A DNA stretch of 16,827 nt from an uncultured Alphaproteobacteria bacterium (lineage in GTDB: Bacteria > Pseudomonadota > Alphaproteobacteria > Rs-D84): the NCBI GenBank assembly GCA_944392815.1, contig CALXXY010000011.1:1-16827 (forward strand), written 5' to 3'. This document shows positions 2,912 to 16,827 of this stretch, in pieces. The translations under genes and the position numbers were made by a program. Every line of letters begins with the position of its first letter. Positions within the stretch are counted from its first letter, which is position 1. Under the pieces are notes generated by a model. That model had not been told where the DNA came from, searched no databases, and worked only from the letters and a program-made list of their open reading frames with translations.

Positions 2912-4024
2912 ATGTTAAACATCAGATTTCGGGAAAAAACAAATACCTGGCCGGCGTTCGTGGATTTATTTTCGAACCTGGTGATTATACTTATCTTTTT
3001 ACTGATAGTATTTGTGTTTTTATGGACAACCACCAGCGTATTTAACCGCGACAGCGGCGCAAAAACTGTGGCCGATTTGAAAAAAACAAACGCCGAACAG
3101 GCCGAACGCATTGTTCAAATGACCGCAGACGAAGAAGAAGCCAAACGCCTGTTGGTGCTGGCGCGCGCCGAATTGGAAAATCTGTCCGCAAACAATGACG
3201 CGCTGTCAAACGAATTGACTCAGGTCGACGCCAGCATGGACGAATTAATCGCCGATTACGAGGCACGCGTTGCCGAACTGCAGGCCCAGGGCACTGATTT
3301 ACAGGCCCAGGTTGCGACCCTGACCACACAACTGAACCAGGCAACACTGGATAAACAGCGCACAGCCGAACTGGAACAGGAACGTCGTGCATTACAGGAA
3401 CAAATGGCCGCCCAACGCGCGGATTTGGCCGAACAATTGAATAAATTACAGGCCGCCCTGGACGCCGCCGAAGAAGCGTCCCATCAAAAGGATATTCAAT
3501 ACGTTGAAATGTCCACCCGCCTGAACAAGGCTTTGGCTGACAAAGTTGCTGAATTAAACGATGTTGCGCAATATCAATCTGTGTTTTACAAAGCGATAAA
3601 AGACGCACTGGGCGACGACAGTTTTATCGAAACTCAGGGCGACAGATTCATTATTTCCAGCGACATTTTATTCGGCAGTGGTTCATATACCATTTCGCCC
3701 GAGGGTAAAAATCAACTGCGTCTGATTGCGAATGTCATTAAAAATCTGGAAAACAAAATCCCAACCAATATCGATTGGATTATTCGCGTCGATGGCCACA
3801 CAGATCGCAAACAGGTCATTGCCGGCACACGTGGGTATTCCAACAATATGGAACTGTCATTATTGCGTGCAAACGCGGTTGTAAATGAATTGGTGGCCGA
3901 TGGCGTATCGCGTCGTCGCCTGGTCCCCAGTGGCTTTGGCGATTTGCACCCGGTCGTACTGGGCACAGACGCACAAAGTTTGCAACAAAACCGCCGCATA
4001 GAATTACAATTAACCAACAGATAA
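2912..4024 (+). CDS. MotB/OmpA-family peptidoglycan-binding protein with long coiled-coil stalk
   Basis: WPAFVDL transmembrane segment carrying the MotB-type Asp; heptad-rich middle region; C-terminal OmpA domain (SDILFGSGS, IRVDGHTD, NMELSLLRA, NRRIEL). Confidence 0.9.
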   Translation: MLNIRFREKTNTWPAFVDLFSNLVIILIFLLIVFVFLWTTTSVFNRDSGAKTVADLKKTNAEQAERIVQMTADEEEAKRLLVLARAELENLSANNDALSNELTQVDASMDELIADYEARVAELQAQGTDLQAQVATLTTQLNQATLDKQRTAELEQERRALQEQMAAQRADLAEQLNKLQAALDAAEEASHQKDIQYVEMSTRLNKALADKVAELNDVAQYQSVFYKAIKDALGDDSFIETQGDRFIISSDILFGSGSYTISPEGKNQLRLIANVIKNLENKIPTNIDWIIRVDGHTDRKQVIAGTRGYSNNMELSLLRANAVVNELVADGVSRRRLVPSGFGDLHPVVLGTDAQSLQQNRRIELQLTNR

Positions 4025-4581: not shown

Positions 4582-7086
4582 TTACATTACAATATCTTCA
4601 CAAACCTCTTCGGACGTTTCAGTTGTACAACTTGTATTTCTGTTGTTGTGGAACCAACTGCTGCTGCCCGTTGTTTTGCAATTCTGGGTGACAGTTTGTG
4701 TACAGATATGACATGTTCTGGTATCGCGGCTGAATATAGCACGCACAGTTTTGGTCATACCGCCACCATTCAAACTGGACCCGCCCAGATAGCCGCTGTT
4801 TGTAAACGTCACGCCATCTGCCTGCAGTACCCCAGCGCCGCCCTTGGCCAAATCTTCGGTCGTCAAACCAGAACCAACGTCATAACTGATTGAATATGGC
4901 GGGGTCAACGGTGTTGACGCTTCTACATTGCCGCCGCCCGAACCGCCGTTCTCAGCGATTTTCTGACACATATACTGTGCCAAATCGGCGGACGCATCAC
5001 GTGTGGCCTCGGCAATGGCTGTATTTAATTTATTGTTATAATTATCCTGTGCCTGGCGCAGTGCCGATGCCGCAATCTGCATTTTTACCTGATTCAACAG
5101 GTTCGGGAAACGCCCACTGGTCATGTCGCCTTCGTTCCCGGTGATTTGCGACAAATCACGCCCATTAATGCAGTACTGAATTTCCGGATCACTTTCGATT
5201 AAATCGATGGTGCGGTTAATAGTCCCGGCGATATTGTTCAATTCTTCTTCTATCGCGGAAATAATACCCTCGGAATTTTCAACATTGGCATTACGTTCAC
5301 GTATTTTGGTTATATAATCGCCAACGCCAATATCACCCGGCCCCAGTTTAACTGTGCCGCCTTCGCCATCACCGACAGTTTCGCCGTCCATATCGCCCAT
5401 GACGATACTGCCGAACGAAATCATACCAGTCACACGATATGTTGTGCCGTCTTTTTGGCTGCGCAAAGAACCGGTCCCAATCGTATCATCAGACGCGAAA
5501 CGATTACAATCAGTTGTACTGCCGCAAATTTCAGCCATTTTTTGGTCGACCAAATTCTGGCATTGATCCATCATAGAATTGTCGATATTCAAATACAATC
5601 CCATCAGCATATCGTCCAAATCGTCCATAGAAAATCCTGGATTATTCGCCTTGCACACGACCAGCGAATCAATCGGACAGATATCGTGGATGTAATCGTA
5701 ATCCATACCGATACAGTTTTCGAAATTCGGCCCACAGCGTGTATCCGCGGTAAAGCAATCTTTGACCTCTTGGGTACAGGCATCGACACGCATTGCCGCC
5801 AATTTATCTTCTACATATCCCCAAATCAGTGGTTCCATACGTTCGCACGGGTCAATTTCAACCTTGCAGAAACTGCGCGCCATTTCCGGCCGTGACAAAC
5901 ATGCGTCCATTGTTGCGACGCCTTTGCCCGCGATATCGTCGCGACACGCGGTTTGAATGCACTCGGAAATGCTGGTCAAACATGACTGACGGAATTTAGA
6001 TTCCGCCTGGCTTTCCGCGACCTTTATCGTCGGTGCAGATTCACGCAGGAAATTCGGCCACACCTGGTCACGCACGGCCACGCATTGATCCAAAACATTT
6101 TCGCAAATTGGTCGTTTGGCACTTAACATTTCCATGGTCGACGCAGTTATATCATACGTATCAACCGTATCCACAGTTGTGCCGGCCGTGCTGACCGCGG
6201 CATTATTTTGCATATTTTCCATGGCAATGGTTGCAACGCAGTTTTCCCAGTTTTCGCCACACGCATCCGCTGTCTGCATGCACTTTTTAAATTCAACCAT
6301 ACATTGCCCCAGGTCGTATTTATTCGCGCTTTCGAAACTTTCCTGCAACGCATTACGCACCGCAGATTCCGCCGACGCCAATTCATTTTCGGCCTTGGCA
6401 CGTTGCTGGGCCAACGAATTTTTATACCCCAAACAATCAGACGTTATTTGCCGCGAATACAATTGTTGCAAAAACGCAATATCCCCAGAACATGATTCAG
6501 GCACCTGGTTCACGCACAACTGATTGGCGGCATCATATAATTCCCGCCCCACCATATCGGCAATATTGGCACCCGTCGACGTTCCCCACAAATCATCATC
6601 TGAATCATCAATCGACGTATTCCACAGTGACAACAAATCGGCACGCTTTTTTTCTTTTTCTTCGGCCTCGCTTATCTCGCCCTCGTCCAGGATATTGCCA
6701 TCTTCGTCATAACGACGTTCCCCGGTAAAAATAATATCGGCATCAGCACCCGCCTTGACACGTTCGACTTCTTCGGTGTTCAGGCGATTGGCCTCGTCCA
6801 AAATGTCCTGGATAGCGGCTAATTCGTCGTTATATCCAACTATATCATCGCTGCAATTGCATGCGCCACCACTGGCGTTATCAGTTATACAAAACTGATC
6901 CATACAGCCAAAATACGCGTCATAGCACGCCTGGTCATACAGACCGGTCGCCTCTATCTTGGTTCGAACGGTTGTGCCCTGTTGTATGGCAGATTGTGTC
7001 CCCGACCGGGCCACAGCCAACGCCGCGCCCCCCGCGCACAACGCAACCACAGAAATCACAGCACACGATACAGTTTTTATTTTCAT
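4582..7086 (-). CDS. large secreted cysteine-rich helical protein, paralog A (834 aa), function unknown
   Basis: Long ORF with signal peptide, AGAGAGAG SD, 36 Cys in the mature chain, CxDAYxxCMDQFC motif, ends CEDIVM. Confidence 0.9.
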   Translation of the reverse strand: MKIKTVSCAVISVVALCAGGAALAVARSGTQSAIQQGTTVRTKIEATGLYDQACYDAYFGCMDQFCITDNASGGACNCSDDIVGYNDELAAIQDILDEANRLNTEEVERVKAGADADIIFTGERRYDEDGNILDEGEISEAEEKEKKRADLLSLWNTSIDDSDDDLWGTSTGANIADMVGRELYDAANQLCVNQVPESCSGDIAFLQQLYSRQITSDCLGYKNSLAQQRAKAENELASAESAVRNALQESFESANKYDLGQCMVEFKKCMQTADACGENWENCVATIAMENMQNNAAVSTAGTTVDTVDTYDITASTMEMLSAKRPICENVLDQCVAVRDQVWPNFLRESAPTIKVAESQAESKFRQSCLTSISECIQTACRDDIAGKGVATMDACLSRPEMARSFCKVEIDPCERMEPLIWGYVEDKLAAMRVDACTQEVKDCFTADTRCGPNFENCIGMDYDYIHDICPIDSLVVCKANNPGFSMDDLDDMLMGLYLNIDNSMMDQCQNLVDQKMAEICGSTTDCNRFASDDTIGTGSLRSQKDGTTYRVTGMISFGSIVMGDMDGETVGDGEGGTVKLGPGDIGVGDYITKIRERNANVENSEGIISAIEEELNNIAGTINRTIDLIESDPEIQYCINGRDLSQITGNEGDMTSGRFPNLLNQVKMQIAASALRQAQDNYNNKLNTAIAEATRDASADLAQYMCQKIAENGGSGGGNVEASTPLTPPYSISYDVGSGLTTEDLAKGGAGVLQADGVTFTNSGYLGGSSLNGGGMTKTVRAIFSRDTRTCHICTQTVTQNCKTTGSSSWFHNNRNTSCTTETSEEVCEDIVM

Positions 7087-7117: not shown

Positions 7118-9325
7118 TCACATATTAATATCTTCGCAACTTTCAATTTCCTGACAGAACTCTTGTTCACCGCCAGCACTGCGTCCCGCGAAATATCCAC
7201 CGACACCGCCAACAACTGCACCGATTGCGGTTCCCCACCCGGGCGATACCATCGTACCGGCCGAAGCCCCCGCCGCCAATCCACCGGCCGCGGCCTGCAG
7301 ACCCGCTGCGCCTTTGGACTGACCACCTGTTTCGCATACCTGCTGCATACGGCACACATGGCAATTACGCAACGCAGGTTCCCACGATACACTGCGGATA
7401 TAACTGTAATTTTTGCTGGATTCGTCCGGTGTTTCAACCTTGTACGTATTATAGCAGTTTTGTTCGGCTGCCTCTAAATCCTGTTGGCGTGACAATTCGG
7501 CAATTTTCGTTTCCAATTCACGCATAGAACGATTTTCCGCATTAATTTGCGCAATCATTTTCGCACTGTTAAACACGCTGTCACCCAAACTGTTGCGGTC
7601 AGACGGTTTTTGACTGTCCTGACACGCGGCCACAGTTTTATCCTGCTCGAACTGTTCGAAAAATTCGTCCACGGCGGCCTCGGTATTGGCGCGAACACTT
7701 TCACGCAACGTCGCCAATTCTTCCTGGGTTTCTGGAACCTCGACCAGTGACGCAATCTGGGTATCTGTCGGCAAACAGGACATATCCGTTCCGCACACAG
7801 CCCCCAATTGTTCGCTGAAATAATTCAAACAGCCCTGCAACATTTGATAATCCATCTGCAACATAGCGGCCTGGACAATAATATCAAATTGCGTTTCATT
7901 TTTGCATGACGGGAACATATCCTGGGGACACATTTCGGCAATTTCCAGCGCACTTTTGCCCACGCATTCAGGCGCAGTGAAATTTTCGCCACATCTGTCA
8001 CGCAAACATGCGTCCACATCGTTTTGACAGAACTGCGTCCGCAAATATCCCAATTTGTCATTTACAACAGTTTTAATCCCCGGAATCATTTCTTCGCATT
8101 CGTCAATAACCGGGCAAATTCCCGCTGCGACATTAACATCAGTCAAACACGCAGAATTCGTTTCTGTGGAACAGCTGTCCTCCAGACACAATTGAATTCG
8201 CGCCAAACATGTTCCACGCGCATTACGATCTGCATACTTTGCGGCATCGGCCAAAATGCTTACGGCTTCGTCCTGCCAATCCTGTAATACGTATTCACGC
8301 ACAGCCATACACTGATCCAAAACATTTTCGCATGCATTGGCACGACGCTGCAGCAAATCCGCATCCAAACAGTTTTCAAAATTCACACCACAACCGCCCT
8401 TGTCCGCGATACAGGACCGATACGCCAACAAACATTCACCACGGTTATATTTGTTTGTCGTATCCAGCATTTCCAAACGCGCCTGGCGAACCGCGGCCTC
8501 GGCCGTGCGCTTGTTGGATTCAGCAATACGTTTTTGGTCATTCAAATATGATTCAAATGTTTTACAATCCTGGACAATCATGCGCGAATACAGCATTTCT
8601 TCCATTTCGGCATCATCGCCACACGCATCCAATCTGCTGGCGCAATATTCAGACGCCATCGCATACAAATTGTCACCAATATCATAATCAGTACCCAAAC
8701 TGACATCGTCATCGGTACCACTGCTTATCCAGTCGGCAAAATTTATCCCCGACACACGGGAACTTTTTTGTGCGGCCTCGCTTTCACCGAACACCAAACG
8801 TGCCTGGGCACCCATTTGTTCACGTTCGACACCCTCGGTATACAGTAAATCCGCCTCTTCCTGAATTTCTTGAATTTCCTGAATCAAAGATTTCGATTGA
8901 TTTATATTTGATGAACATGCGCAACGACTGCCCTCGGATTCGTCCAGCAAACAAAATTCGTCCATACACGCACGATACGCATCACGACACGATTCACTGT
9001 TCGCCACAGGCGTTGCACTTACCGTTGGGGTGGTATTGGTCGCACCGCCGCTGACCGATGGGGTTGTGTTCGTTGAACCCGTTGTTGTATTTGTTGTTGT
9101 GGTATTTGTGACGGCACCAACACTGTCCGACAGCGTCGGCATAAACGTCCCGGCCGTTGTTGTACCGGTATTTGATAAATCAACCGACATGTTTGGCGCA
9201 CGTGCCCCCGCCTGGGCCATGCGGCTGACCCCCACGCGCACCGCCGCAGAATCCGCGCGTGTCGCGGCATTTGCAATCCCAGGCAACACACATAACAATG
9301 TGAAAACAGGTAATAATTTCATCAT
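7118..9325 (-). CDS. large secreted cysteine-rich helical protein, paralog B, with C-terminal glycine zipper
   Basis: Start most likely MMKLLPVFTLLCVLPGIANA (9325 or 9322) after GGGGTGGGA. Thr-rich linker, CRDAYRACMDEFC, 36 Cys collinear with paralog A, ends CEDINM. Confidence 0.9.
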   Translation of the reverse strand: MMKLLPVFTLLCVLPGIANAATRADSAAVRVGVSRMAQAGARAPNMSVDLSNTGTTTAGTFMPTLSDSVGAVTNTTTTNTTTGSTNTTPSVSGGATNTTPTVSATPVANSESCRDAYRACMDEFCLLDESEGSRCACSSNINQSKSLIQEIQEIQEEADLLYTEGVEREQMGAQARLVFGESEAAQKSSRVSGINFADWISSGTDDDVSLGTDYDIGDNLYAMASEYCASRLDACGDDAEMEEMLYSRMIVQDCKTFESYLNDQKRIAESNKRTAEAAVRQARLEMLDTTNKYNRGECLLAYRSCIADKGGCGVNFENCLDADLLQRRANACENVLDQCMAVREYVLQDWQDEAVSILADAAKYADRNARGTCLARIQLCLEDSCSTETNSACLTDVNVAAGICPVIDECEEMIPGIKTVVNDKLGYLRTQFCQNDVDACLRDRCGENFTAPECVGKSALEIAEMCPQDMFPSCKNETQFDIIVQAAMLQMDYQMLQGCLNYFSEQLGAVCGTDMSCLPTDTQIASLVEVPETQEELATLRESVRANTEAAVDEFFEQFEQDKTVAACQDSQKPSDRNSLGDSVFNSAKMIAQINAENRSMRELETKIAELSRQQDLEAAEQNCYNTYKVETPDESSKNYSYIRSVSWEPALRNCHVCRMQQVCETGGQSKGAAGLQAAAGGLAAGASAGTMVSPGWGTAIGAVVGGVGGYFAGRSAGGEQEFCQEIESCEDINM

Positions 9326-9351
9326 TCCCACCCCATACATAATTTATAGTA

Positions 9352-9748: not shown

Positions 9749-9827
9749 GTTGCCTGTGTGAATAATTATTACTTTTCAATAAAATATATTTTTGTTATCA
9801 TTTATATACATATTATACACAACGGGA

Positions 9828-12305
9828 ATGAAAAGGTTTTTATTCTTTGTCATGGCGTGTTGCATCAGCATCGCGAATGCTGGTGCTGCTGTTCGTGGAA
9901 CAAACTCGGTTGACCGCGCCCAATCCGCCGCGACATCGAACACAAATTCCCAAACGGTAATCGCGCGCACAACAACGCGCACACCCGCGGCCGTATCCAC
10001 AACACGCACAGCCACCGCCCGTGGCGGCGCAACAAATACGGTATCCCGCGCGTCATCAACCGCACGCGGCGCAACCACGTCCCAAACGGTCGCCCGCACC
10101 GCAACCAATCCACGCAGCGCGAACGCCACCCAAACCACCGCCCGCAGCGCGCGCACCAACACCGTCGTACGCAGCGCCACCCCCCAGCAATCACGCGGCA
10201 CCTCAACCGCGGCCCGCAGCGCACGCGCCGCACGCGCAACAACTGTGGCGCCGTCCAGTGTCACGAACACATTCGGCACAGAATACAATGTTTGTCGTGA
10301 CGCATATTTCACATGCATGGATCAATTCTGTGCGACCGCCAACGACAGTTATCGCCGTTGCGTCTGTTCGTCCAGATTGACAGATATCCAGGAACGCGAA
10401 CGCGCCCTGTCCCAGGCGGCCGGACAATTACAGGATTTTCACGATTTAAACATAGAAGTTATTCCCAAAACCGCGGCCGAGGTTAACGCCATGCTGTCCG
10501 CCAGCGAAGGCGAACTGGCCATTACCGAGGACGATTCGGAATCATCGCAACAACTGGCCGGCATACGCGAGGTTTTAAACACATCTAAATCCCAGGCACT
10601 GTCAACACTGGGCACATTGGACATTGCGGGCGACATAAATCAAATTTGGGCAACAACGGATTTGGCGTCTGGCCAAAACATTGCGAATTTAACCGGTGAA
10701 TCATTATACAACGCTGTACACGCCCAATGCGTGGATTTGGTCAGCGAACAATGCGCCAACCAATCAACACTGAACATGGTTGTATCCGCATACGGCATGT
10801 ACATAGAAAACGATTGTTCTGCATTGCTGAACGCATTGGACACCCAATTGGTCCAGGCCAACAGCACAATTCGCGACACAGAACGCGAAATGAACATGGC
10901 GCGCCTGGAAAATTATAACGCCCATAATTCCACCGCCATCAACGAATGTATCGCCCAGGTTCGCACAGACATCACCGCCGACACGGCATGTGGTGCGGAT
11001 TATGTTCATTGCCTGGACATAACAGGGCGTTATTTAAATCGCGACACAGGCGAACCGATTTATTCCCCAGAATTCTATGAATTGGAACATCAAATATCAT
11101 TGGACGGCGACGTATTAACCAACGCAACCAACCGTTTAATTGTCGCCGAATTAAACAGCAAACGTATATATGCCGAACGCGGTCTGGAAACATGCCGCGA
11201 CATCGCGGACGAGGTTTGGGACGAATTCGTCCGCCAGGCCATCGTCGAAATATACCAGGGTCAACAGGAAAAAATCCGCACGGTTAAAAACGAATGCCTG
11301 GACGTGGTGAACGCATGTTATGACGAACAAAGCGAATCGTTAAAGGACTTTAGTAATATCAAAGAAGAATTATTATTGGGTTCCCGTCTGGAATTATCCG
11401 AAGAATTATGCCAGGAAAAATTATACGCCTGCAGCAACCTGTACGGCGACCCGGACGGCGACGGATTGGATTTATTGCTGTCCGCTATGCGTGATATCAC
11501 AGACCAAAAAATCGCCGCCAATTGCCAGGAATTGTTGCAGGCCTTTGCCCAGGATACCTGCACCGTCCCCAGCAACGACAGTTTGCATGCATATCCATAC
11601 GGTTGCCGTGTATACGCACCGGGCGACGCAATATATGCGTCCAAACCATATTGTAATCAATTGCAATGGTCCAACACAGGCGGTGGCCTGGGTGGCGATG
11701 ATGACGACCCCACCCCCACGGGTCCCGGATATTCATGCCCACCATATAAAAAATACATATCATGCACCACTGGCTATTTCATGGCAACAAAAAATGACGA
11801 AGGCACATGGAAATATAACGGCACCCCAACCGTCGGCAATTCATGCCAACCATGTTTACTGCATTATACATGCCCCGGTGGCACAGACAAACCCATTCCA
11901 CCCGTTGGCACGGAAGAAAACGGTGAAATGGACAAAGATTGCGGTGTGGACTATGCCGGCAGTTTGTATCAGCGCATAGTCAGATACGCAACCCAGGTAT
12001 GCACCCGCCCATCTGAATACGACCAGATTACCGCGGGCACCATGAACATTCCAGCCAACGTATTACAGGACGTCAACATTGTCATGGATTCGATCAAGGT
12101 TGACATGTCCACTGCGCTGTCGGCCGAATGTGAACGATTGGGCGGCATATGGGTTGACACCCAATGGGTGGACGAAGATGAAGATCCAGGTGCCCACGAC
12201 GTCACAGGCGACAAACAATACAAATATTTCTATGACGAAACGGGGTCAAATACCAAATGGGGATATTGTGCGGAAATAACGGATACTTCCACATCGTCGC
12301 CATAG
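9828..12305 (+). CDS. large secreted cysteine-rich protein, paralog C, with basic Arg/Thr/Ala-rich N-terminal tail
   Basis: Start reassigned to ATG9828 (MKRFLFFVMACCISIANA signal peptide). CRDAYFTCMDQFC...RCVCSS motif shared with paralogs A/B; about 29 Cys in the mature chain. Confidence 0.9.
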   Translation: MKRFLFFVMACCISIANAGAAVRGTNSVDRAQSAATSNTNSQTVIARTTTRTPAAVSTTRTATARGGATNTVSRASSTARGATTSQTVARTATNPRSANATQTTARSARTNTVVRSATPQQSRGTSTAARSARAARATTVAPSSVTNTFGTEYNVCRDAYFTCMDQFCATANDSYRRCVCSSRLTDIQERERALSQAAGQLQDFHDLNIEVIPKTAAEVNAMLSASEGELAITEDDSESSQQLAGIREVLNTSKSQALSTLGTLDIAGDINQIWATTDLASGQNIANLTGESLYNAVHAQCVDLVSEQCANQSTLNMVVSAYGMYIENDCSALLNALDTQLVQANSTIRDTEREMNMARLENYNAHNSTAINECIAQVRTDITADTACGADYVHCLDITGRYLNRDTGEPIYSPEFYELEHQISLDGDVLTNATNRLIVAELNSKRIYAERGLETCRDIADEVWDEFVRQAIVEIYQGQQEKIRTVKNECLDVVNACYDEQSESLKDFSNIKEELLLGSRLELSEELCQEKLYACSNLYGDPDGDGLDLLLSAMRDITDQKIAANCQELLQAFAQDTCTVPSNDSLHAYPYGCRVYAPGDAIYASKPYCNQLQWSNTGGGLGGDDDDPTPTGPGYSCPPYKKYISCTTGYFMATKNDEGTWKYNGTPTVGNSCQPCLLHYTCPGGTDKPIPPVGTEENGEMDKDCGVDYAGSLYQRIVRYATQVCTRPSEYDQITAGTMNIPANVLQDVNIVMDSIKVDMSTALSAECERLGGIWVDTQWVDEDEDPGAHDVTGDKQYKYFYDETGSNTKWGYCAEITDTSTSSP

Positions 12306-13132: not shown

Positions 13133-16100
13133 TCAGAAATCATATCTGAATTTCAACATACCTGTCTGGGACGTGTAATCTTCGTGTAAATCCAATTCAT
13201 AGTTTACAGAAAATTCCCAGCCCTCGTACATGGCGGTCAACCCGATACCGAATTCACCACCGAACCGCGACAGGCGATCTGCGTCAATCACGTATGACAC
13301 ATTACCCGGTGCGACAACAGTTGACACCACCGCATCAGACAGGAAATCATACGTTGCCGCAGCACTGATTTCCGGACGGAATTTCAAACGTGCCTGCGAT
13401 TCGATATCGAACGCATATTTCACGCCGGCAACCCCGGTCAGATAATCTGTGTCCACGGCTTTGACTGTACCGATTGCACTTTCGTGTTCGTCCTGGGTGA
13501 TGTGCAAATAACGTGCACCAACCATCGGTGTCAACCCAGACGCAAAATCATATCCAGTCATGATTTGTCCACCAAACGAATCGACATCGTATTCAGATTC
13601 CAACGCAAACGCACCATACAGATTGGATTTTTCTGTATAATTCGACATTGTGTAATTCAATGTGCCGTTCACGAACCATTGTGATGGTTTGTATTGGCCA
13701 TACACAAACAAACTGCTGGAATCGATTGTTGTATCACGCGAATTCGAATCGACATCAGTATCATTGTACGCATACCCGACACCGATTGTGTATTTACCGT
13801 TAATCAGCGCATCTGCACCAACGGAAATACCCATGGTATCACCGGTAAACTTGTCGGAATATTTCGCATGATTGTACAGTCCCTGGGCCCAGATACCATA
13901 ATCCATATTGGCACTGTCACCACCGCTGCGGCCAACGGCACCACCCGCCATACGACCCGCCGCCAGTGATAACACCTGGTTCTGGACAGACGACGCAACA
14001 GATTGCGCCACAGGTGTATCGTCCGGGTTCAGTTTGGCTATTTCCTGTTCGACATACCCAACATTCCCCGCGGCCAACTCCTGTTGCGAACGCAGTGAAA
14101 TCGCATTCAGTACCGCATTGTTGGAATTTGCCAACCCCGCAACACTTGCAGCGCCCTGGGTGGACAGCCCTGTGTTTTTGGCAATTTCATCAACAGATTT
14201 TGTTGTCACAATGAATTCGCCGGCCTCGGTACCGCCCGTGACATTATAAATATCACCAAAATCAACCGTGGTGAAATCAACATCATCTGTGCCAAAGATA
14301 TTGTACGTACCAACGCCGCCGATGTTCAATTTCAACGTGCTGTCCGACACAGAAATGCTGTCCGCGTCAATTTTGCCATAATTGTCGGAATTCAACAACG
14401 ACGCAACCAAAGTGCTGCCATCAAACGTGACAGAATTCTGGACGATGGTCGACGTACCAATATCCAGCACGGCACCACCTGATACAGTCAATTTGCCTGT
14501 GTCACCAGTAATACCGCCGGTCAGTTTGGTTGTACCACCATTAATGGTCACAGTTCCCAAATTATGAATGTCGTTGGCCTGGCCACCGGCATAGTTATTT
14601 GAAAACACATTATCCCCAGACATGGTGATTACGCCCGATTTTTCATTATAAATGGCGCCACCAAATTCACCAGCAACATTGGCCTCGAATGTGGTGTCGT
14701 TTAACTTAATCTCTGCAAAATCATTTGCCTGATTACCAACATTCGCAATTGCACCACCCTGCTTGCCGGCCTGATTGCCAGTAAATTCGGATTTATCAAT
14801 CAAACCAATTTTTCCGGCATTGGTAATTGCACCACCCTGTTGGTTAACATTTTCTGTGATCGCCATATTATTCACGAACCGCACATTGGTCATGGATTCA
14901 ACCACGCTGCCCAGCGACCCGTTCCAAAACGCGCCACCATTTCCAGAAACATTGCCTTCGAACAACACGGTGTCCAATTTAGTAATCGTATTTTGATTAC
15001 GCACAGCACCACCGTTGCCACCGATATTATTCATAAACGATGTATTACGTATGGTTCCGATGGTTCCGCCATCACCCTGACTGGTATTATTGATAGCGCC
15101 ACCATTATAACCCTCGTTTTTCACGAACAATGTATGCGCAATTTCATCAATATTGCCCTTGTTATAAATGGCACCGCCACCGCCAGATGATCCTGTGGCT
15201 TTGTTATCGCCAAATGTCATTTGCGATGTACCATTATTGAATACCAATTCGCCTTCGTTCCAAATGGCACCAGCAAAACCCGCCTCGTTCATGGTAAACG
15301 ATGTATCGGCCCCCAAAGTGGTTGTCCCGGCGTTATACAATGCACCACCCCAGGCATTTCCAGTTTCAGACACCACTTTATTACCTTTGAACGCGCCATT
15401 TACAGTCAACGTACCTTCGTTATAAATTGCACCACCCAGTGCGTCCGTTGCATTTGTCGTCACCGAGTTTGTTTCAAAATCGCCATTAACCGTCACCGTG
15501 GCATCCTTGTCGCCGTCAACCTTGATAGAAATCGCACCACCGGTTGACGCTTTGCCAACAGCTTGTTCTGTCAGGGCCGTCACCGTATTCGATTTGAATC
15601 CGCCATTAATGGTCCCAATTTCCACGGGTGTTTTTGTGCCACCTTTGACATAAATGGCGCCACCATTGGCATATGCGTCACCAGTTGCCGAATTGGATTC
15701 AAAATTGCCGTTAATTGTCCCGATTTTGGTAATATCGCTTGACGCCTGGTTTTCTTCGACCCATTTGCCTTCTATATGAATCGCACCACCACCGGCCGAT
15801 ACCATTTTATCTGTATTAGCATACTCGCGTGATTCAACCTTTTCGTCCAACACAGCAGAAACATAATTGCCAATAAAATCGCCATTGATTTCATCAATCT
15901 GGCTGCCAGAATATGCGGCTATGGCACCACCATTTGCCGTTGCTTTACCGGCTATATTCGATGTATTTTCCACACCATTGTTTGTAAAGTCAGCGTTTAT
16001 CGTACCAATTAACCCCAGGTTATAAATCGCTGCGCCCTGGCCATATACGTCATTTTCTTTGTTCGCGTCATTATCACTTTTTGTTATAACAATTTTATTG

Positions 16101-16312
16101 CCAGAAATTCCACCGGGAACATCAATTAACGTATACTCGTCGTTATTAACAGGAACATGCAATACCCCGCCGCCCCTTGATTTGTCTGTCTCGACGGTAA
16201 AAGGTTTATTGCCAGACCATTGTATATCGTCCGCAAATGCGGGCATAATCGCCAACGCCGGCAACACAGAACAGATTTTCACCAAATCTGTCAAACGTTT
16301 GTATGCTGACAT
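13133..16312 (-). CDS. autotransporter (type Va) with Pmp-like GGA(I/L/V)/FxxN beta-helix passenger
   Basis: Start reassigned to ATG16312 after AAGGAGA, with a signal ending PAFA. About a dozen GGA[ILV] and about 15 FxxN motifs. The C-terminal amphipathic beta-barrel runs from YGIWAQG and ends LKFRYDF (terminal Phe). Confidence 0.92.
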   Translation of the reverse strand: MSAYKRLTDLVKICSVLPALAIMPAFADDIQWSGNKPFTVETDKSRGGGVLHVPVNNDEYTLIDVPGGISGNKIVITKSDNDANKENDVYGQGAAIYNLGLIGTINADFTNNGVENTSNIAGKATANGGAIAAYSGSQIDEINGDFIGNYVSAVLDEKVESREYANTDKMVSAGGGAIHIEGKWVEENQASSDITKIGTINGNFESNSATGDAYANGGAIYVKGGTKTPVEIGTINGGFKSNTVTALTEQAVGKASTGGAISIKVDGDKDATVTVNGDFETNSVTTNATDALGGAIYNEGTLTVNGAFKGNKVVSETGNAWGGALYNAGTTTLGADTSFTMNEAGFAGAIWNEGELVFNNGTSQMTFGDNKATGSSGGGGAIYNKGNIDEIAHTLFVKNEGYNGGAINNTSQGDGGTIGTIRNTSFMNNIGGNGGAVRNQNTITKLDTVLFEGNVSGNGGAFWNGSLGSVVESMTNVRFVNNMAITENVNQQGGAITNAGKIGLIDKSEFTGNQAGKQGGAIANVGNQANDFAEIKLNDTTFEANVAGEFGGAIYNEKSGVITMSGDNVFSNNYAGGQANDIHNLGTVTINGGTTKLTGGITGDTGKLTVSGGAVLDIGTSTIVQNSVTFDGSTLVASLLNSDNYGKIDADSISVSDSTLKLNIGGVGTYNIFGTDDVDFTTVDFGDIYNVTGGTEAGEFIVTTKSVDEIAKNTGLSTQGAASVAGLANSNNAVLNAISLRSQQELAAGNVGYVEQEIAKLNPDDTPVAQSVASSVQNQVLSLAAGRMAGGAVGRSGGDSANMDYGIWAQGLYNHAKYSDKFTGDTMGISVGADALINGKYTIGVGYAYNDTDVDSNSRDTTIDSSSLFVYGQYKPSQWFVNGTLNYTMSNYTEKSNLYGAFALESEYDVDSFGGQIMTGYDFASGLTPMVGARYLHITQDEHESAIGTVKAVDTDYLTGVAGVKYAFDIESQARLKFRPEISAAATYDFLSDAVVSTVVAPGNVSYVIDADRLSRFGGEFGIGLTAMYEGWEFSVNYELDLHEDYTSQTGMLKFRYDF

Positions 16313-16408
16313 ACTTTCTCCTTTGTTTAAGTATACAAAACCCTTCTGTTCTTTTACGGTATCACAGTTGGTAATACTTGCAACAAAAATTAATTTGAAC
16401 AATTTCCC

Positions 16409-16665
16409 AAAAACGATACCGCCAATCCAAATGGAAATGGCGGTCGGGTGGGTTCAAAAAATCACATAACAGTATGACCCCGCCAGCTTTCGGGCCAGGC
16501 CCTGTTTTATCACTGGCGGCCCCCCGACCATACGGCGGGGAATCACACAATAAAAGGCGCACGTGCGCCACAACATTATTGTGTGCGGATTTTGATACGC
16601 CACATCGCGTACCACTGTTATGCGGGATTTTTGACGTCCCCGAACCCAAATCCCTTTGGATTCAT
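16409..16665 (-). ncRNA. putative structured non-coding RNA / leader of unknown family
   Basis: Own promoter (16671-16699), extensive nested complementarity, and a terminal hairpin ACCGCCA...TGGCGGT followed by a T run. No convincing ORF. Confidence 0.6.
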
Positions 16666-16670
16666 GACAA

Positions 16671-16699
16671 ATTATACGCGTCCCACCAACAAAAGGCAA
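16671..16699 (-). promoter_or_regulatory. near-consensus sigma70 promoter driving the putative ncRNA
   Basis: TTGCCT-17 nt-TATAAT on the minus strand. Confidence 0.7.
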
Positions 16700-16713
16700 A
16701 TAAAAAAAATAGA

Positions 16714-16742
16714 TTGCAAACGCCCCAGATACAATATATAAT
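16714..16742 (+). promoter_or_regulatory. sigma70 promoter of the tRNA gene
   Basis: TTGCAA-17 nt-TATAAT followed by a GC-rich discriminator (AGCCCGC). Confidence 0.75.
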
Positions 16743-16753
16743 AGCCCGCACAT

Positions 16754-16827
16754 TGGGGCATAGTTTAACGGTAGAACTCCGGACTCTGACTCCGTCAGTG
16801 TTGGTTCGAATCCAGCTGCCCCAACCA
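16754..16827 (+). tRNA. tRNA-Gln (anticodon CUG)
   Basis: Acceptor stem TGGGGCA/TGCCCCA (U1-A72), D arm GTTT-AACGGTA-GAAC, anticodon loop CT-CTG-AC, GGTTCGAATCC T arm, encoded CCA. Confidence 0.97.

Follow-up and report, generated by a model that had tools for sequence, protein, structure and literature searches.

We report that the minus strand of a 16,827-nucleotide (nt) stretch of DNA from an uncultured Alphaproteobacteria bacterium (contig CALXXY010000011.1 of assembly GCA_944392815.1; the whole stretch is called the window here) carries a 256-nt leader RNA ahead of an autotransporter gene. This leader is probably an attenuator that acts in cis on the transcription of envelope and accessory genes, which here would decide whether transcripts reach the autotransporter. 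The RNA is structured, has promoter and terminator motifs of its own and belongs to a family associated with downstream genes; two sets of its helices covary, and one of them overlaps the terminator. From these observations we infer that the two folds gate termination, with one of them as the default and some factor tipping the balance.

The leader had been described in a first-pass annotation, made from the sequence alone, as an unannotated structured RNA with its own promoter, a terminator-like hairpin and switch-like alternative pairings, and much of that description holds. Every helix that it listed can be read from the sequence of the minus strand, and the predicted minimum free energy (MFE) of the RNA is -119 kcal/mol compared with a mean of -89.6 kcal/mol for shuffled sequences, 0 of 200 of which folded as well (z-score in Table 1). 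The promoter, given as TTGCCT-17-TATAAT, is borne out by its match to the sigma-70 consensus, and a -35 TTG and a TAnnnT-like -10 recur at equal spacing from the 5' hairpin across 18 aligned copies. Similarly, the hairpin before the U-run has a conserved stem in which all six pairs covary, and the autotransporter ATG, which had been placed about 95 nt past it, lies at 16312, 96 nt past the U-run. A simple terminator scan did not flag this terminator, the stem of which is nevertheless conserved and covarying; its 'loop' is 14 nt long and a 4-nt spacer precedes the U-run.

Covariation was counted on an alignment of 74 copies (the order contributed 59 and other families of the class 15) fitted to a covariance model, R1, which had been built from a 16-copy alignment in which 27 of 47 consensus pairs showed compensatory changes. 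In the first of the two folds, state A, a rod made of the helices S5:X'3', P3a and P3b would close a junction of P4, P5, X'up:X and P7 (segments as in Table 1). The 47 pairs of state A were paired in 96.6% of cells, compared with 74.8% in shuffles (0 of 500 as high), whereas partners slid along the alignment as a control were only 38-55% paired; 42 pairs had changes on both sides, and the paired cells with double changes came to 663. Within this fold, the S5:X'3' helix was paired in 96.1% of cells, with 2 of its 5 pairs changing on both sides and a mean duplex energy of -9.8 kcal/mol. The X'up:X duplex averaged -14.1 kcal/mol compared with -9.0 kcal/mol when X'up was given a shuffled partner, and X'up and X covary between subfamilies.

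A second set of helices, X:X'3', P8 and P2', was counted on the same alignment, which had not been fitted to them, and they are absent from R1. The 11 pairs of X:X'3' (GGUCGGGGNG with CNCCCCGAYC) were paired in 95.6% of cells with a mean duplex energy of -21.3 kcal/mol, and its key N:N pair reads AU in 32 copies, GC in 20, UA in 11 and GU in 7. The 5 pairs of P8 were paired in 88.4% of cells, 4 of them with double changes such as UA/CG and AU/GC, and the 4 pairs of P2' in 85-93%, with such changes in 2. Columns 377-381 of X'3' have S5 as their partner in state A but X in this second fold, state B, and columns 358-365, which supply the 3' strand of P8, serve as the P3 3' strand in state A. Because X:X'3', P8 and P2' thus occupy columns of S5:X'3' and P3, they are incompatible with state A. 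Further, X:X'3' extends into columns 382-384, which form the first three of the six terminator-stem pairs (the terminator stem shares its first 3 bases with X'3'), and state B would therefore be an antiterminator. A pseudoknot that accommodates both folds is, judged from the topology, sterically implausible, since X lies within the region closed by P3 and X'3' one base outside it.

The first-pass annotation was thus right that alternative pairings exist, albeit not about which they are: the conserved set is X:X'3' with P8 and P2', and the pairs that it proposed are not supported. Its long rod through AAUCCAAA:UUUGGAUU, the latter in the terminator loop, is confined to this copy, the terminator loops of other copies being unrelated, and its GGGUUC/GAACCC pairing is not conserved (one copy, G016a, has GGCUUC and UAACCC). 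Its suggestion of an attenuator that controls the adhesin is the best-supported reading.

As isolated duplexes, X:X'3' is stronger than X'up:X, which in turn is stronger than S5:X'3'. Folded as a whole, the window RNA reaches -117.8 kcal/mol in state A and -103.2 kcal/mol when state B is forced, and in the forced state the program pairs S5 with X'up, which is the classical 1:2 and 3:4 versus 1:4 and 2:3 arrangement of attenuators. The leader resembles classical terminator/antiterminator leaders (riboswitch platforms and the trp type) in having four mutually complementary segments, of which S5 and X are G-rich and X'up and X'3' C-rich, and in having a terminator that overlaps the last of them; this family has both terminator and Shine-Dalgarno versions. 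Unlike trp-type leaders, it has no leader peptide, and leader-peptide attenuation was rejected: the 5' NUG opens a frame with unconserved codons, whereas the base pairs are conserved.

We propose that in state A the terminator hairpin would form, transcription would stop and an RNA of ~256 nt would be released. In state B the local hairpins P2' and P8 would replace the rod, and the G-rich X would pair with X'3'; this would remove the first 3-4 bases of the terminator stem and allow readthrough by RNA polymerase. Candidate triggers are a small ligand, a protein, RNase P and the transcription rate. The same device stands ahead of at least 13 other genes in the genome, mostly exported or envelope genes, and these would therefore form a regulon under one signal. 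In Bartonella henselae, Brt1 is described in the accessible text of two papers as an abundant RNA of ~200 nt with little read-through, and deletion of the brt1 3' stem-loop as raising transcription of the downstream trp1 (PMC5387305, PMC8070961).

Several points weigh against attenuation by these two folds. Computed energies favour state A by 8-15 kcal/mol, and state B therefore needs help or kinetic trapping. Because the alignment was fitted to state A, its pair counts are inflated, and because the copies are related to one another, the shuffle controls overstate significance. A second promoter may lie inside the 96-nt gap between the terminator and the start codon. In addition, the relatives L079, L101 and L103 have no terminator, and their X'3' is complementary to a Shine-Dalgarno sequence ~12 nt downstream; judged from these sequences they are the usual translational version of such a switch. 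States A and B would both free the Shine-Dalgarno sequence in these variants, so a plain two-state scheme does not fully account for them, and a further form in which all hairpins are local is likely.

Table 1. Parts of the leader RNA and its locus, with the evidence for each.
Feature	Position	Strand	Evidence
sigma-70-type promoter: -35 TTGCCT (16694-16699), 17-nt spacer, -10 TATAAT (16671-16676)	16671..16699	minus	promoter scan, 10/12 consensus positions
Leader RNA, 256 nt, predicted start to U-run	16409..16664	minus	R1 222 bits, E = 4.6e-57; fold z = -5.98
P1, 5' hairpin GAAUCCAAA-GGGA-UUUGGGUUC	16642..16663	minus	5/5 pairs change on both sides; 98% of cells paired
S5 (UUCGGGG), G-rich, partner of X'3' in state A	16638..16644	minus	helix columns 54-58/377-381
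P2', small local hairpin GGGGA-loop-UCCC, state B only; loop is the P3a 5' strand	16624..16641	minus	alignment not fitted to P2'
5' strands of the closing rod: P3a (16626-16635), P3b (16614-16623)	16614..16635	minus	16/18 pairs change on both sides
P4, variable hairpin GGUACGC...GCGUAUC	16594..16613	minus	in MFE folds of 16 long copies
P5, long arm CACACAAUAA/UUAUUGUGUG, cap GGCGC-ACGU-GCGCC	16544..16585	minus	tip helix, 5/5 pairs change on both sides
X'up (UUCCCCGCC), C-rich, pairs with X in state A (local hairpin)	16534..16542	minus	duplex energy; co-change with X
X (UAUGGUCGGGGGG), central switching segment, pairs with X'up or X'3'	16520..16532	minus	nearly invariant core GGUCGGGG
P7, arm CCGCCAG/CUGGCGG, internal loop GAUAAAACA / GAAAG, inner stem GGGCC/GGCCC	16480..16519	minus	8/8 outer pairs change on both sides
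P8, local hairpin GGUCA-loop-UGAUU, state B only; loop is the P3b 3' strand (16464-16473)	16460..16479	minus	covariation
P3a 3' strand (GAUUUUUUGAAC)	16452..16463	minus	covariation count
X'3' (CCCACCCGACCG), pairs with S5 (state A) or X (state B), followed by CCA	16441..16452	minus	covariation, duplex energy
Intrinsic terminator ACCGCCA...UGGCGGU, then AUCG and UUUUU	16409..16444	minus	6/6 stem pairs change on both sides; 98.4% of cells paired
Autotransporter gene with Chlamydia-PMP repeats, 1059 amino acids (aa)	13133..16312	minus	PF03797 beta-domain E = 1.4e-33; PF02415 E = 1.8e-11

The leader is one member of a large family. By BLAST, full-length relatives with 67-76% identity were found in 20 of 24 genomes of the genus, several of which carry two or three copies, and in 0 of 16 genomes of other families; the genus-restricted element that BLAST alone suggested was overturned by covariance-model matches across the order and the class. 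R1 matched 106 of 121 genomes of the order (88/91, 14/19, 2/4, 1/3, 0/1 and 0/2 in the families f1, f3, f2, f6, f4 and f5, respectively), with at least 882 matches from a search that scored at most 17 candidates per genome, and 15 of 149 genomes of other families of the class (E between 1.6e-30 and 2.2e-5). A second covariance model, R2, covers only the core from X to X'3' (46 diverse copies, 93 positions, 21 pairs). P8 was excluded from it, since roughly half of the rows in the MAFFT core alignment had the P8 3' strand displaced by a column, and was counted on the R1-based alignment. In a sample across the phylum, R2 matched 13 of 151 genomes, 5 of the matched genomes lying outside the class (37-43 bits). 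A consensus pattern led to eight viral contigs in IMG/VR, all confirmed by R2 at 57-73 bits, in which the copies precede genes that, from translations read by eye, encode serine-recombinase-like, GIY-YIG-like and membrane proteins.

Within the window's own genome (0.93 Mb, 45.6% G+C), R1 gave 16 matches at E up to 1, 14 of them at E < 0.01. Seven are long copies of 193-269 nt with the core GGUCGGGG...CCCGACC, all of which score 50-92 bits with R2; the 193-nt copy lacks the P5 arm. The other seven are short: six of 174-182 nt have GGUUGGAG...CUCCAACC and one of 213 nt has GGUCAGGAG...CUCCUGACC, and since the cores of the subfamilies differ in both segments, the G-rich and C-rich segments change in concert. 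P4 is absent from short copies and is therefore an optional arm. One long copy of this genome (C8:14090-14358, minus strand) has no downstream open reading frame (ORF) with a Shine-Dalgarno sequence within 230 nt and ends atypically in two hairpins at its 3' end; it may be stand-alone or decaying. Adjacency to tRNA-Gln, seen at only 2 of 15 orthologous loci, is not shared by the family and was rejected as a guide to homologues. The leader family is multi-copy, and the leader is not a single gene beside that tRNA.

A co-oriented downstream ORF with a Shine-Dalgarno-like sequence was found for 79 of the 81 copies examined. In most copies the terminator is followed by the Shine-Dalgarno sequence and start codon within ~6-33 nt, whereas the autotransporter orthologues have 74-123 nt. 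Within the first 45 residues, a strongly hydrophobic 10-residue window was present in 61 of 79 downstream products compared with 224 of 627 in a crude whole-genome gene call, an excess given as enrichment and not as a statistical test because the copies are related to one another. We ran Pfam on 51 chosen downstream products, 26 of which had no family; among the rest were autotransporter, PMP-repeat, YadA-anchor trimeric autotransporter and outer-membrane beta-barrel proteins, together with GT2, GT-D, LicD, FkbM, pyruvyl-transferase, HTH_3 regulator and ResIII helicase families. Many of the products without a family are small cysteine-rich exported proteins. Three short-form copies of the window's genome (C1:75455-75667, C3:90033-90213 and C4:90096-90276) precede paralogous exported cysteine-rich proteins of ~145 aa, with mature N-termini VTKCVA..., VTKCVAL... 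and ATKCVNL.... Another paralogue, C2:26047-26239, lies 29 nt upstream of an HTH_3 gene. Relatives outside the order also precede genes for lipoproteins and small unknown proteins and, as read from N-termini and not by Pfam, for a DNA methylase and a nuclease.

The first-pass annotation had thought that the RNA might be a novel noncoding RNA; it is not wholly novel. The whole window, compared with Rfam at gathering thresholds, yields tRNA-Gln (16754-16824) as its sole match. When positions 16250-16827 were searched at E up to 10, sRNA-Xcc1 (RF02221) was the sole meaningful extra line, at 16434-16529 on the minus strand, with 32.9 bits (E = 7e-4). As this is below the gathering score of 53, the window copy is no member of RF02221 by Rfam's rule. 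The 3' domain of the leader (X, P7, P8 and X'3') aligns over the full length, positions 1-87, of the 87-position model, P7 being the portion that the model fits best. The two share a closing helix of ~9 bp, an arm with an AUAMAAYAG...GAA internal loop, a second hairpin and a U-rich junction of the UUUUGA type, and all three helices of this Xcc1-like three-way junction covary in the 74 copies. Below threshold, RF02221 also matched this domain at 29.7-44.5 bits in 7 of 20 further loci, as well as in 2 of 8 loci at class level. Conversely, one of 10 loci checked for R2 matches (G331:C1:5110275-5110363; R2 41.8 bits, E = 2.7e-5) scores 66 bits with RF02221; because this R2 match coincides with a bona fide RF02221 member, the two models detect each other's sequences. 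In Xanthomonas campestris, sRNA-Xcc1 is described as an 88-nt RNA determined by rapid amplification of cDNA ends (RACE) (PMC2996969, accessible text), and it is placed upstream of symE in Xanthomonas integron cassettes by a preprint available to us in part (bioRxiv 10.1101/2025.06.18.660453). The leader is alike in preceding a gene. It differs in carrying ~130 nt of extra 5' sequence (P1, S5, the P3 5' strands, P4, P5 and X'up) able to undo the Xcc1-like fold, and in having a canonical terminator after the domain. In a non-alphaproteobacterial genome (L232), positions 2894-2958 of the minus strand, ~1.1 kb away from an Xcc1-like element, match the type II hammerhead ribozyme with 66.4 bits, against a gathering score of 37.

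The second link is to the Brt RNAs. In the accessible text of PMC5387305, Brt1-9 of Bartonella henselae are nine highly transcribed RNAs of 194-203 nt that lie 10-18 nt upstream of XRE-type helix-turn-helix (HTH) genes; they are described there as Bartonella-specific, and one copy is counted on a plasmid carried by B. grahamii as4aup. On the B. grahamii plasmid pBGR3 (NC_012847), R2 matched at 26560-26652 on the plus strand with 31.4 bits (E = 2.1e-5, R2 E-values being rough), ~40 nt upstream of the plasmid's only annotated HTH regulator gene (26691), and again at 25884-25971 on the minus strand with 27.5 bits (E = 1.6e-4; next best E = 0.17). R2 contains sequences of the window family only. 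The core model was required for this link because the full-length R1 scored the plasmid only weakly (14.4 bits for the minus-strand copy and 6.5 bits for the plus-strand copy). A 199-nt region of pBGR3 (26474-26672; fold z = -6.54) has the architecture of the leader, with a 5' hairpin and a closing rod around inner arms that include an X'up:X hairpin and a P7-like arm, and on this resemblance it is presumably the plasmid Brt copy counted in Table 1 of PMC5387305. On pBGR3 (L226, 26653-26669), in a 3.5-Mb alphaproteobacterial genome (L231) and on an IMG/VR contig (L245), the element's ACCA is followed by one and the same 16-nt hairpin, UGCGAGGGCGCUCGCA, which may be a conserved 3' module.

Brt RNAs and the window family are alike in being multi-copy, with their own promoter and a 3' stem-loop before a downstream gene (attenuating in Brt, which is abundant as short RNAs), and the HTH_3-associated paralogue of the window's genome has the same setting. 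They differ in that the window RNA is longer than the 194-203 nt of Brt RNAs, with the extra arms P4 and P5, and stands 96 nt before an autotransporter gene and not 10-18 nt before an XRE gene; moreover, Brt is known as described from the genus Bartonella, whereas the window family extends across the Alphaproteobacteria and beyond. Our literature search found no paper that joins sRNA-Xcc1 with Bartonella and, in the accessible text of the papers found, no description of Brt relatives outside Bartonella. On sequence grounds, the window RNA would be an extended variant of a known, poorly understood Brt/sRNA-Xcc1 kind that reaches the threshold of no Rfam family.

An explanation compatible with attenuation, and one that we consider possible albeit unlikely, is that the leader is the precursor of a trans-acting small RNA of the phage-C4 or sRNA-Xcc1 type. 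The 3' junction of state B would then mimic a tRNA acceptor end, RNase P would cut 5' of X, and an RNA of ~90 nt would be freed, whose P8 loop and junction, masked in the precursor by the P3 5' strands, would pair with target mRNAs. The C4 antisense RNA of phages P1 and P7, a small structured RNA located in the leader of the operon under its control, matures through RNase P cleavage aided by a 3' CCA, and upstream complementary sequences mask its active loops in the precursor. That the P1/P7 C4 precursor is an RNase P substrate is reportedly a result of Hartmann from 1995. The window RNA is alike in having U(-1)/G(+1)...RCCA and upstream strands that mask the P8 loop and the junction. Among the 74 copies, U stands at -1 of the X:X'3' helix in 46 and G at +1 in 67, and the four positions after the helix read R (73 copies), C or U (72), C (69) and A (59), a signature in sequence only. 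Bacterial RNase P is described as reading a 3' RCCA and preferring U(-1) (PMC4919922, accessible text), the Rfam model of the RACE-mapped 88-nt sRNA-Xcc1 (PMC2996969) begins at the first base of this helix, and Brt1 is reported, as far as the accessible text goes, to affect badA expression (PMC5387305).

Against such a precursor, no C4-type family of Rfam matched positions 16250-16827 at E up to 10, and ARAGORN found no tRNA-like gene at the leader. The resemblance to C4 RNA is a lead only. The RCCA is buried in the terminator stem of terminated transcripts, and UCA replaces CCA in 14 of 74 copies. A C4-like self-target in each copy's own translation-start region was tried and found unsupported: duplexes of the P3 3' strands averaged -8.23 kcal/mol with cognate and -8.07 kcal/mol with non-cognate regions, and the mean rank of the cognate region was 34 of 72, in a crude test that took only the last 60 nt up to position +28 of the start codon. 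As the RNase P signature is present but no such self-target was found, RNase P processing is kept as a rival or complementary mechanism.

One subfamily has X and X'3' identical to the tRNA-Tyr acceptor stem. A 2.3-Mb alphaproteobacterial genome (G190, contig C23; L104) carries two near-identical 206-nt copies 1.7 kb apart (3534-3738 and 5269-5474), each 20 nt upstream of the gene for an 80-aa HTH_31 protein, which is the Brt/Trp arrangement, and in these copies the X/X'3' helix with ACC equals the acceptor end of tRNA-Tyr. A pattern made from the G190 copy and run on named genomes matched tRNA-Tyr genes at 8 of 8 loci checked, among the matches listed, and 0 of 20 loci checked from these matches hit R1 below E = 0.1. 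BLAST of the G190 element and its XRE gene against plasmids gave no match.

The tentative extension of this idea, which we hold to be rather doubtful, is a Proteobacteria-wide, largely uncatalogued class of bistable leaders that joins Brt, sRNA-Xcc1 and hundreds of copies from gut Alphaproteobacteria and in which the readthrough fold is a tRNA-acceptor mimic cut by RNase P.

A metabolite- or ion-sensing riboswitch, in which the junction of state A or state B would bind a ligand and so set the terminator choice for surface genes, is in our judgement rather improbable. Its attractions are a large conserved multi-helix junction whose closing helix competes with the expression platform, the occurrence of both terminator-type and Shine-Dalgarno-type platforms within the family and the many copies per genome before functionally related genes. 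Consistent with ligand sensing, lower heme is reported to increase read-through into a reporter downstream of brt1, and heme has been put forward as the signal (PMC8070961). However, the Bartonella work saw no influence of temperature or pH (PMC8070961), few positions outside the helices are invariant, P4 and P5 are optional arms, and subfamilies differ in their P1 loop. No known aptamer or riboswitch of Rfam matched the whole window at gathering thresholds or positions 16250-16827 at E up to 10. Further, the downstream genes across the Proteobacteria are very mixed (adhesins, porins, glycosyltransferases, XRE regulators, recombinases, nucleases and DNA methylases), unlike a metabolite regulon.

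It is very improbable that the family is a repeated non-functional element, such as a palindromic intergenic repeat or a mobile promoter cassette without function at the RNA level. The copies are multiple, occur on plasmids, viral contigs and integron cassettes, and give reverse-strand pseudo-matches because the element is partly palindromic, but at 67-76% identity they keep their base pairs through the 663 double-change cells, hold a fixed orientation to the downstream gene, promoter and U-run, and showed neither terminal repeats nor transposase genes beside the copies inspected. A divergent housekeeping RNA (6S, RNase P RNA, tmRNA, signal recognition particle (SRP) RNA or T-box) has next to no probability: only size and high structure speak for it, whereas no such Rfam family matched 16250-16827 at E up to 10, ARAGORN found no tmRNA, and 14 divergent copies per genome each precede a different gene. 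The 6S RNA that the first-pass annotation had left open is excluded as far as Rfam tells, and the leader is a multi-arm junction present in 14 copies and not a single-copy rod with a central bubble.

Elsewhere at the locus, tRNA-Gln(CUG) (16754-16827, plus strand) has its own promoter-like TTGCAA-17-TATAAT at 16714-16742, back to back with the leader promoter. Between 4582 and 12305 the window holds ORFs of 834 aa (4582-7086, minus), 740 aa (7118-9340, minus) and 837 aa (9792-12305, plus); these and two ORFs of ~240 aa matched no Pfam family at E up to 0.001.

Overall, Brt, reported only in Bartonella, and sRNA-Xcc1, first reported only in Xanthomonas campestris, appear to be parts of one large two-state family, and both fields gain a consensus structure, hundreds of natural variants and concrete testable mutations. 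If the RNase P reading were true, with the U(-1)/G(+1), the helix of ~11 bp and the RCCA as tRNA-acceptor mimic, antitermination would be coupled to the release of an RNA of ~90 nt, and one signal would switch at least 14 adhesin, porin, secreted-protein and glycosyltransferase genes in genomes of 0.9 Mb. Because the device precedes a large share of the surface-protein genes in these gut Alphaproteobacteria with reduced genomes, it is probably their main means of surface change.

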